From the IMG/VR virus record IMGVR_UViG_3300027987_000509: a stretch of 64,000 bases of DNA. One strand, given 5' to 3'. The notes below the pieces were generated by a model, which saw only the letters and a list, made by a program, of their open reading frames with translations, was not told the DNA's origin and ran no database searches. The position numbers and the translations under genes are program-made. Position 1 is the first letter of the stretch. The number at the start of each line of letters is the position of its first letter. This document shows, piece after piece, positions 35,192 through 36,637 of this stretch. This stretch comes from a virus.

Positions 35192-36637
35192 TTATCTATT
35201 TTGGCAATCTGGGCATATCGCAACACCACCAGTATCGATGGCGTAATCGTATGACCAGTCATGCTTGTCGAGGCAATTTTCGCAGGTCTTCGCATCACAA
35301 TTGATGCAGTCGTAGATGTAGTTGCCGTTGTGGAGGTTCATCTGTGCTCCGCAGTACATGCACGAATTCGGATCGCGGAATTCATCTGCGTCCTCAAGGC
35401 CCTCGTACGATTCTCCTAGCCAAGCATCTTCGTAAGCCTGCTCGATAGCCTGTTCGTCACGGCGTTCTAGGCATGATGGGCAGGTGATCTCGAATCCAGG
35501 GCCTTCCCTGGTATCACAAGCTGGGCATATCGGCTGGCCACAATCAGAACATCTGGCATCCTGAGAATCAGCCAGTGGGCTATCTTGCCGCTTGATGAGG
35601 GCAGCACATTCGTCGCAAATTGGATCTCCGCAGATAGCACACTGCTGGTCGAAGATCATACCCCAATCACCATTATCGCCACCACAAATGACACAACTAT
35701 TTGGAGCGAACTCGTCGGCGTCTTCAAGACCTTCGTATGATTCCTTGACATAATGTGGTGGAATCGGCGGGCGGGGATGCCATGGGCTCTCACCAGAGTG
35801 TTCTAGTGTGCCTGGGGTATACTGATCTGCTGGGTAAGGTGAAACGTAATCGTCCGTCATGCATCTGGGGCATGCGATCATCTGGCCAGCATCTGGGTGC
35901 TCTCTACCGTTCTCCATGAACTCAGGCACCCAATCGAAATTGCTGCCGCTTGAGACGCAATAATCACACCAGATACCGCCGCAATTGCAGTCTTCCAGGT
36001 CTTCATGGCTGTAATCGCGACCGCAACCATCGCAGAAGTCAGTCTGGTCGTCGAATTCGTCGGCGTCCTCAAGGCCCTCGTATGATTCAAGACGTGGAAT
36101 GCCGCGAAGATCTTCTGGGTCTACCGGCTGAACTGGCAGATCGACGACTTCATGGTGCATAGCACGGGCTATATCACCTTTGGTGAGTTCGCCAAATTCG
36201 TCATTATCCTCGAGCCCAACATATTCGTCTTCTATCCAATCGGGCCGCCATGTTTCGGCGATTTCAACCATGTCTGGCGTGAATGAGACATCCGGATGCT
36301 TGGACCAGGACATCCCGCCACCAGATTCGTAGTGGCGATATGGGATGTCGACCGAATATGCGTTTTGGTCGTCGTAAGCGATGAGGTAGGCGTGGTCGTC
36401 GCCTTCTTGGCCGCCTTCTGTGTAGTCAACACCGGCGTCGCTCAGGATTTCGCCAATGCCGTTAGCGATTTGGTCACAGATTCCGCCACCACCGACTTCC
36501 GCGTCGCCGTATTCGTCGAATTCTGGGTCCCAAGAGTCATAGATAGCCTGGGCGGCGGCTGCCATCGCCGGTCGTAATTGTTCCAACCGGGCGGCCAATG
36601 AGTCCTGGACACCCTCAATGATGGTGGCCAGTTTCAT
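35192..36637 (-). CDS. Acidic modular protein: N-domain plus zinc-finger modules separated by (ES)YEGLEDADEF repeats
   Basis: MKLATIIE|G N-terminus; four repeats; three different Cys-rich modules. Confidence 0.8.
   Translation of the reverse strand: MKLATIIEGVQDSLAARLEQLRPAMAAAAQAIYDSWDPEFDEYGDAEVGGGGICDQIANGIGEILSDAGVDYTEGGQEGDDHAYLIAYDDQNAYSVDIPYRHYESGGGMSWSKHPDVSFTPDMVEIAETWRPDWIEDEYVGLEDNDEFGELTKGDIARAMHHEVVDLPVQPVDPEDLRGIPRLESYEGLEDADEFDDQTDFCDGCGRDYSHEDLEDCNCGGIWCDYCVSSGSNFDWVPEFMENGREHPDAGQMIACPRCMTDDYVSPYPADQYTPGTLEHSGESPWHPRPPIPPHYVKESYEGLEDADEFAPNSCVICGGDNGDWGMIFDQQCAICGDPICDECAALIKRQDSPLADSQDARCSDCGQPICPACDTREGPGFEITCPSCLERRDEQAIEQAYEDAWLGESYEGLEDADEFRDPNSCMYCGAQMNLHNGNYIYDCINCDAKTCENCLDKHDWSYDYAIDTGGVAICPDCQNR
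35378..36223 (-). repeat. Four dispersed in-frame 30-bp repeats encoding YEGLEDADEF/YVGLEDNDEF
   Basis: Copies at 36194-36223, 36053-36082, 35708-35737, 35378-35407. Confidence 0.95.

Follow-up and report, generated by a model that had tools for sequence, protein, structure and literature searches.

A near-invariant acidic decapeptide behind putative head-protease sites in a predicted polyvalent cargo protein of an uncultured T4-like phage

Introduction

The capsid targeting sequence of phage T4 is the classic route for loading injected proteins and has already been used in engineered protein-delivering particles. The internal proteins of T-even phages are diverse but have a conserved targeting sequence in common (PMC3012670). 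For targeting to the T4 head, the first 10 residues of IPIII are sufficient, and gp21 cuts after the Glu of L/I-x-E (PMC9026906); the latter had also been stated in a first-pass annotation of the locus described here. Here, we analyzed an open reading frame (ORF) of 481 amino acids (aa) at positions 35192-36637 (minus strand) in IMG/VR record IMGVR_UViG_3300027987_000509 (146,091 bp), which derives from an uncultured T4-like phage. The encoded protein carries one degenerate and three exact copies of an acidic decapeptide with the consensus Y-x-G-L-E-D-x-D-E-F, which is referred to below as the tag. The window, i.e., the whole stretch of DNA in which the repeats were first noticed, comprises 64,000 nt of this record, and positions are given in window coordinates unless a locus is named.

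Two further groups of described systems are close to this locus. In the large phages phiKZ, 201phi2-1 and SPN3US, many head proteins are also cut after the Glu of a three-residue motif, with several sites per propeptide (PMC9026906; PMC10052503); the motif of these phages, S/A/G-x-E, differs from the (L/I/V)-x-E described below, and neither a tag after the cut site nor bead-like strings have been reported for them. For the polyvalent proteins of phages and conjugative elements, packaging and, in some cases, processing have been predicted (Iyer, Burroughs, Anand, de Souza and Aravind 2017; PMC5512222). Like the 481-aa protein, they join several unrelated effector-type domains in one polypeptide, and the N-terminal domain of the 481-aa protein is found in proteins of this kind next to SprT-like, ParB-like and GNAT domains. 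The text of PMC5512222 contains none of the terms transglutaminase, papain-like, cysteine, zinc ribbon, ZnR or linker, and a decapeptide punctuation is not described there.

A short N-terminal leader beginning with MK and ending in I-x-E is common to the 481-aa protein and the T4 internal proteins IPI, IPII, IPIII and Alt (PMC9026906, PMC3012670). Moreover, in both phages the protease belongs to the gp21 family and the capsid protein is of the gp23 type, and in both the (candidate) cargo proteins are diverse, have only the leader in common and are of a size that could pass the tail. The 481-aa protein has no sequence homology to the T4 internal proteins, however, and its leader is 8 residues long. 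Unlike in T4, cleavage would leave the tag on the product, and several units are joined in one polypeptide; this lineage-specific, near-invariant tag and the bead-like concatenation represent the new elements over T4-type cargo and polyvalent proteins. We propose, as a reading that we consider about evenly balanced between right and wrong, that the 481-aa protein is a late-made, capsid-loaded polyvalent cargo protein that is cut into tagged pieces by the head protease. This prediction would extend the T4 targeting principle to several cargo units that are loaded as one chain and parted by the head protease, with a second near-invariant peptide that stays on each unit and marks candidate injected proteins in marine, probably jumbo, phages. 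Besides an enzyme-like domain, the candidate injected set would include zinc fingers of a type often found in eukaryotes and, perhaps, a neighboring sigma-like factor, and the cargo of uncultured phages could be read from sequence alone.

Results and discussion

An acidic tag recurs in the 481-aa protein and in other phage proteins

Translation of the 481-aa ORF confirmed the four repeats that had been noticed in the first-pass annotation, the last three of which are each followed by a Cys-rich module (with 8, 12 and 8 Cys, respectively) and are preceded by R-L-E-S, V-K-E-S and L-G-E-S. When the complete 146,091-bp record was scanned in six frames, 11 tag copies were identified in six proteins, including the four copies in the 481-aa ORF, three in a 1312-aa ORF and one in each of four small genes beyond the window; of the latter, three begin with MKLREIYILE, MKIRSIIE or MKLRSIIE, with the tag directly after. 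This recurrence shows that the repeat is no product of chance. Searches with degenerate DNA patterns found the tag in 18 stretches on 9 IMG/VR contigs, and a tag-plus-finger profile matched 254 representative proteins at E <= 0.001 among 1.84 billion. Strict tags were present in 40 of the 173 proteins examined, with one to nine copies each (nine in P0032), and 13 of these 40 tagged proteins are products of single-tag stand-alone genes. When Pro was allowed at position 5, 128 unique tags were found in 54 proteins (cluster representatives). Searches with the complete 481-aa ORF yielded no match in PHROGs, only a weak FYVE match (15.5 bits) in Pfam and no tblastn match against 50,697 phage records; megablast of the neighborhood, a text search for the tag string in 8.4 million papers and a literature search for a proteome of the phage were also without match.

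A sister tag with Pro at position 5, Y-x-G/D-L-P-D/E-x-D-x-F, was found in other uncultured phage proteins (P0040, P0046, P0053, P0056, P0062, P0084, P0121, P0131, P0139, P0143 and P0152), where it likewise stands behind MK[LI]R..I.ES leaders and before zinc fingers.

Cut-site-like triplets precede most tags

Among the 41 unique tags of this genome and the IMG/VR loci, 36 are preceded by (L/I/V)-x-E, with the Glu located 1-6 residues before the tag Tyr, compared to a background of 13% for 10-residue windows taken at random (P = 5e-27). The larger protein set showed the triplet 1-8 residues upstream of 82/95 tags; when this genome was excluded it was still present before 76/86 tags (P = 4e-56 against the same background), and under the loose tag rule before 106/128. 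The triplets are diverse (ITE, VKE, LGE, IIE, VNE, LAE and others). Ser directly follows the triplet Glu in 23 of these 36 tags from this genome and the IMG/VR loci; spacers between Glu and Tyr include S, SD, SE, SSD, NDE and DPDESD. This variable spacing suggests that the cut-site-like triplet and the tag are two separable elements.

The record encodes a protease that could recognize such triplets. The product of a 249-aa gene at genome positions 22826-23575 (L002:4826-5575) contains a Peptidase_S77 domain (PF03420, the T4 gp21 family; 67.6 bits with a Pfam cut-off of 27) and matches phrog_207, head maturation protease, at 3.8e-38, and two genes downstream a 539-aa gene encodes a Gp23-type capsid protein (PF07068, E 1e-79). 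T4-like terminase, portal, baseplate hub and baseplate wedge genes were also identified using PHROGs. Matches to the capsid protein were found in 2597 phage records, at less than 60% identity throughout; most of these records are from T4-like phages that infect enterobacteria and cyanobacteria. The capsid propeptide served as an internal control for the specificity of the protease. In an alignment of the capsid N-termini of 19 relatives, the basic stretch was found to be variable in sequence and length while L-x-E, I-T-E and I-H-E were kept, and I-H-E adjoins the conserved KKNQLV of the mature capsid part (capsid gene N-terminus, L002:6417-6560; loci L027-L055).

According to the proposed mechanism, the gene would be transcribed late as part of an operon that contains further leader-bearing genes, and the leader, acting like the capsid targeting sequence of T4, would direct the protein to the prohead core. 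Subsequent cleavage by the gp21-family protease after the Glu of (L/I/V)-x-E would take place at the leader as well as before the tags, yielding an enzyme-like piece of 14 kDa and zinc-finger pieces of 8-13 kDa that each start with Ser followed by the tag. Pieces of this size could exit through the tail with the DNA. The first-pass annotation had proposed a capsid-packaged polyprotein that is cut at its xxE/S junctions into small zinc peptides. This proposal is partly supported; V-K-E/S and L-G-E/S fit the strict (L/I/V)-x-E rule, while the other two of the four junctions do not, and both the N-terminal enzyme-like domain and the polyvalent relatives had been missed.

Several observations weigh against cleavage of the 481-aa protein by the head protease. 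The triplet is short and, as the background given above indicates, frequent by chance, and the P values overstate independence because the tag copies are related by descent. Within the 481-aa protein, tags 1 and 2 are preceded by W-I-E-D-E and R-L-E-S, respectively, neither of which fits the strict rule. The equivalent junctions in P0002, P0003 and P0004 read I-N-E or L-M-E. The protease rule also leaves the near-invariance of the 10 residues after the cut site unexplained. Moreover, the tag is absent from relatives whose protease is 71-79% identical, among them two genomes of at least 98% completeness, and was found near head genes in the closest relatives only (83% protease identity). It follows that the protease does not require the tag and that protease specificity alone does not explain it. 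T4 internal proteins are basic rather than acidic, while the cargo proposed here is extremely acidic. Finally, the cuts identified in SPN3US all remove N-terminal propeptides, apart from self-cleavage of the protease (PMC10052503), and a head-processed string of retained units would therefore be new.

A search for the S77 protease with both the Pfam family and the protein as query found no match in five tag-bearing IMG/VR records, which are 6-41% complete, so that this empty result is uninformative. Relatives of the protease are located on contigs of up to 408 kb; among the relatives with 64-83% protease identity are two near-complete genomes, of 408 kb and 354 kb. Tag-bearing contigs of 96-147 kb were estimated by CheckV to be 26-41% complete, with 41% for one of 146.8 kb. 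Taking together the size of the near-complete relatives and this completeness, the 146-kb record probably covers part of the genome of a jumbo phage with about 350 kb.

The leader occurs with and without the tag

Of the 95 tags in the larger protein set, 28 begin no later than residue 25 of the protein, behind MK[LI]... leaders, and in stand-alone tagged genes the tag follows an MKLRxIxE leader. The leader of the 481-aa ORF, MKLATIIE, is of the same MKL(R/A)xI(I/A)E type as that of other genes. Leaders of this type also head tagless genes, including the upstream 308-aa gene and genes that start with MKLRLIAE, MKLRAIAE or MKLRFIAE. Since it is present on tagless genes, the leader, and not the tag, is likely the counterpart of the T4 capsid targeting sequence, as far as sequence comparison indicates. 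In the fused relatives P0005-P0010, (L/I/V)-x-E is found at the same place before the N-terminal domain. P0028 contains an internal MKLKHITE before its second tag, which represents a relic of the fusion of two tagged genes. Across all genes of the genome, (L/I/V)-x-E was not enriched in the first 16 residues (20% vs 22%), indicating that the leaders are confined to a subset of genes.

Selection appears to act mainly on the tag peptide

Within the genome, the codons of the tag copies vary at every synonymous position. The mean pairwise identity of the copies was 23.4 of 30 bases, compared to 22.8 expected from 5000 simulation runs with the genome's own codon usage (P = 0.04), and four pairs share at least 28 of 30 bases where 0.38 such pairs would be expected (P = 0.001). 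An identity this close to the codon-usage expectation and the variation of synonymous codons suggest that selection acts mainly on the peptide, while the four near-identical pairs suggest that a few copies are recent duplicates.

These four pairs could also be taken as support for another explanation, namely that the 30-bp repeat is chiefly a DNA-level recombination site at which modules are exchanged or inverted between genes; the fact that relatives differ by whole tag-plus-module units and that the same module is found in different proteins would fit this explanation as well. However, the mean identity barely exceeds that expected from codon usage, no synonymous position is held constant, and the peptide is kept in proteins that are only 40-45% identical as well as in the Pro-5 variants. 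In addition, 30 bases with 5-7 mismatches represent a poor substrate for homologous exchange. On the basis of the codon simulation, a pure DNA-repeat origin was rejected as the main cause, and we regard a chiefly DNA-level role of the repeat as very improbable.

The tag may be a docking motif or a portable label

The AlphaFold2 (AF2) model of tag 4 with the following finger gives predicted local distance difference test (pLDDT) values of 50-59 for the tag part, which is modeled as disordered, and the tag has fixed hydrophobic anchors (Tyr, Leu and Phe) among its acidic residues. Both features are typical of docking motifs and would suit a protein that stays whole in the cytoplasm, where the tag, together with the upstream hydrophobic residue and Glu-Ser, would act as a multivalent short linear motif that recruits several copies of one host or phage partner, with the zinc fingers binding or serving as spacers. 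The number of tag copies per protein (up to nine, in P0032) is consistent with multivalency, and E-S is very common right before the Tyr and could belong to the motif. On the other hand, the distance between Glu and Tyr varies from 1 to 6 residues, the MKLRxIxE leader is also found on tagless genes, and the stand-alone genes with a single tag are common (13/40 proteins), so multivalency is not essential. The presence of a gp21-type protease and the kept sites in the capsid propeptide also fit cleavage. Taking this evidence together, we consider it unlikely that the protein acts as an uncut recruiter; if cleavage by the head protease should prove wrong, the tag would still represent a striking docking motif.

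If the head protease does cut as proposed, the tag stays on each product, which suggests a role after cleavage as a common handle. The tag could hold or order the pieces in the head, where the scaffold candidate (encoded between the protease and capsid genes; isoelectric point (pI) 9.45) and the capsid propeptide (pI 11.6) are strongly basic; by comparison, the 481-aa protein is the most acidic of the 152 proteins in the record, with a pI of 4.05 and a net charge of about -82. Alternatively, the tag could dock the pieces on one shared target in the infected cell. A more far-reaching proposal, which we regard as tentative and rather doubtful, is that the tag is a portable address label of a kind that has not been described in tailed phages. 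Retained on each product after the head-protease cut, it would set the retention, exit order or destination of unrelated small cargo via one receptor (a capsid-interior protein, the portal, the scaffold or a host hub), and the polyproteins would be a compact way of loading stoichiometric sets of injected effectors. Encapsulin cargo-loading peptides are similar in that a short, conserved and disordered segment marks unrelated proteins as cargo of an HK97-fold shell. Unlike the putative label, however, encapsulin peptides are usually C-terminal, are hydrophobic or basic, bind the shell interior and are uncoupled from proteolysis.

Three other readings of the tag were considered and set aside. 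A likeness of Y-D-G-L-E to cyanobactin recognition sequences is at odds with modules that are whole domains rather than short cores; cyanobactin proteases were not searched for. Mimicry of the acidic C-terminal tail of SSB or gp2.5 would need a free C-terminal Phe, whereas the Phe of the tag is internal. The third reading was that of an N-degron.

The tagged modules include diverged copies of one zinc finger

Roughly half of the tag copies stand before unrelated modules without Cys, and the tag is thus not specific to zinc fingers. An all-against-all BLAST of 48 tag-following segments placed 20 Cys-rich segments, including all three of the 481-aa ORF, in a single cluster; the remaining segments were singletons or orthologous pairs, mostly without Cys. 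The Cys modules align as CxxC-x(8-22)-CxxC-x4-CxxC-x(11-30)-CxxC with invariant Cys columns. The single cluster and the common alignment indicate that the three fingers are diverged paralogues of one cross-brace domain. The modules that had been described as three different ones in the first-pass annotation are therefore copies of one 8-Cys FYVE/B-box-like finger, which is predicted to be binuclear. Ordinary tandem duplication, which had been named there as a finding that would contradict its reading, applies insofar as the modules are paralogues; they have diverged far, though, and each is conserved across the relatives P0002-P0004.

For module 3, the AF2 model of the finger core reached pLDDT values of 72-87, and Foldseek matched it to FYVE, rabphilin and PHD fingers with probabilities of 0.9-1.0 (E 0.014), in agreement with the initial guess of a B-box- or treble-clef-like fold. 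Like FYVE, PHD and B-box fingers, the phage fingers have eight ligands in four CxxC pairs with cross-brace spacing and CxxC-x4-CxxC in the middle, but all of their ligands are Cys and their Pfam scores are sub-threshold (15.5 bits for module 3 and 14.4 for a stand-alone 155-aa protein, compared to the PF01363 FYVE gathering threshold of 27.8). The lipid-binding patch of FYVE domains, R(R/K)HHCR, binds phosphoinositide; this basic patch is absent in module 3, where the matching stretch reads C-I-N-C-D-A-K-T-C. In untagged relatives of the finger profile, Pfam identified B-box, FYVE and ANCHR-like B-box domains.

P0001-P0004 differ from each other in the number of whole tag-plus-module units, and the same module was found in different proteins. 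Judged by these sequences, the modules are independent units, and whole tag-plus-module units appear to have been gained and lost between relatives during evolution. Modules were also found as stand-alone genes, in P0064 and P0069 with leader and tag and in P0099 with neither.

The finger profile also matches tagless Asn/Lys-rich proteins of at least 2000 aa with 20-34 B-box/FYVE-like repeats (P0029, P0030, P0033, P0035 and similar proteins). These long proteins look eukaryotic (protist-like) and give a hint of a finger type that is common to phages and eukaryotes.

The N-terminal domain has a predicted transglutaminase/papain-like fold

Residues 1-138 of the 481-aa protein have 25 homologues (whole-protein E 1e-15 to 1e-168), and C54, H82, D97 and E104 are invariant in the alignment of 26 sequences. 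In the AF2 model of the domain (pLDDT 82.7), a helix starts at Cys54, with His82 and Asp97 on the strands that follow this helix (strands 84-88 and 93-97). Structural matches were weak yet of one kind, namely Cys-His-Asp enzymes with a transglutaminase/papain-like fold, and included arylamine N-acetyltransferase (Z 5.8), LapG protease (Z 4.9), the C3 domain of Pasteurella toxin (PMT; Z 4.8), transglutaminases, protein-glutaminase and SseI, with Z between 5.8 and 4.2 overall and Foldseek E values of 0.15 or worse. Transglut_core clusters were matched in Atlas with template modeling (TM) scores of 0.50-0.58, and transglutaminase-like and McjB-like entries in AFDB. The domain had no Pfam hit, and a profile search of PDB sequences and Pfam gave chance-level rows only. 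The model thus predicts an uncharacterized thiol-enzyme domain of transglutaminase/papain-like fold.

The domain is widespread in tagless proteins (P0005-P0026). In P0005-P0010 it is fused to a homologue of the upstream 308-aa gene, and it also occurs in P0013 (with PF10263 SprT-like and PF00583 GNAT domains), P0019 (PF02195 ParB-like) and P0024 (PF10263), at E 1e-21 to 1e-27. The 481-aa protein itself joins unrelated effector-type domains, i.e., a transglutaminase-like domain, three zinc fingers and a peptide module.

The presence of this domain raises the question of whether the tag itself could be a cleavage cassette of a self-processing polyprotein, as in RNA viruses, with either the head protease cutting inside the tag after G-L-E or another protease reading the whole decapeptide. 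Candidates for the latter are the transglutaminase/papain-like domain itself and a 495-aa protein with NAL1_N and trypsin-like (Trypsin_2) domains that is encoded in the window (9114-10601, minus strand). Long invariant sites are used by highly specific viral proteases, and the domain, with its invariant Cys, His and Asp, has weak matches to LapG protease and to an entry named as the C-terminal domain of McjB (microcin J25 processing); proteases of the LapG and McjB types have the same fold. In P0001-P0004 the first tag directly follows the domain, and G-L-E fits the S/A/G-x-E motif of phiKZ-type relatives (PMC9026906). By contrast, the capsid propeptide keeps (L/I/V)-x-E and no S/A/G-x-E, the domain is widespread without the tag, and tags are also found far from the domain. 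Moreover, with Z scores of at most 5.8, protease activity is only one of several chemistries that could be expected for the fold. We therefore judge a cut within the tag, or a protease that reads all of it, to be quite unlikely.

In GC-rich polyvalent proteins of other phages, (E/D/Q/A)-N-P motifs are located exactly at both borders of the transglutaminase-like domain (residues 260 and 392 in P0013, 279 and 413 in P0019) and recur between other domains. They represent a different punctuation mark in another lineage.

The tagged gene is part of an operon with a late-promoter-like octamer

On the minus strand, the 481-aa ORF is the third gene of an operon (Table 1) that starts with a 715-aa gene, followed by the 308-aa gene (14-nt overlap), the 481-aa ORF (4-nt overlap) and a 551-aa gene (3-nt gap). 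An octamer close to the T4 late promoter TATAAATA, [CT]AAANATA, is present in 39 copies in the genome; 19 of these precede a gene in sense orientation by no more than 60 nt, which represents an enrichment (P = 3e-17). Genes with an upstream octamer include those encoding the portal, the scaffold and a tail-fiber-like protein as well as tagged genes. One copy precedes the 715-aa gene, and the 551-aa gene has its own octamer, AATAGATA, 4 nt before its GTG start codon.

Table 1. Features of the 481-aa ORF, its operon and the second tagged ORF in the window
Feature	Position	Strand	Basis or remark
N-terminal leader MKLATIIE, residues 1-8	36614..36637	-	I-I-E directly before Gly9; resembles T4 capsid targeting sequence
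Conserved domain, residues about 14-135	36233..36598	-	26-homologue alignment; AF2; predicted transglutaminase/papain-like Cys-His-Asp fold
Tag 1, degenerate YVGLEDNDEF, residues 139-148	36194..36223	-	Translation and six-frame scan
Cys-free 37-aa peptide module, residues 149-185	36083..36193	-	Kept in P0002 only
Tag 2, YEGLEDADEF, residues 186-195	36053..36082	-	R-L-E-S in front
Zinc-finger module 1, residues 196-300, 8 Cys	35738..36052	-	Pro-rich tail, V-K-E at end; orthologues in P0002, P0003, P0004
Tag 3, YEGLEDADEF, residues 301-310	35708..35737	-	V-K-E-S in front
Zinc-finger module 2, residues 311-410, 12 Cys	35408..35707	-	L-G-E at end; 33% identity to module 3 over 70 aa
Tag 4, YEGLEDADEF, residues 411-420	35378..35407	-	L-G-E-S in front
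Zinc-finger module 3, residues 421-481, 8 Cys	35195..35377	-	FYVE/PHD-like cross-brace finger (fold matches); P0099 is an untagged stand-alone copy
CAAAGATA octamer, T4-late-promoter-like	39727..39734	-	40 nt before 715-aa gene
715-aa gene, first of operon	37547-39694	-	Operon analysis
308-aa gene, leader MKLADATDFTLIE	36634..37560	-	Stop overlaps start of 481-aa ORF by 4 nt
551-aa gene	33533-35188	-	Two helix-turn-helix stretches matching PHROG families HNH endonuclease and DNA-binding protein
Three tags near N-terminus of 1312-aa ORF (15297-19235)	15480-15509, 15657-15686, 15993-16022	+	Six-frame scan

The gene order of the operon is kept in a relative, with two further leader-bearing genes inserted. 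In this relative (L024:8332-9980), the two extra genes are located between a 307-aa gene and the tagged protein; the first starts with MRLATIAE followed by a twin-arginine-like RRDFLK signal, and the second starts with MISNTINE and has a Toprim-like core.

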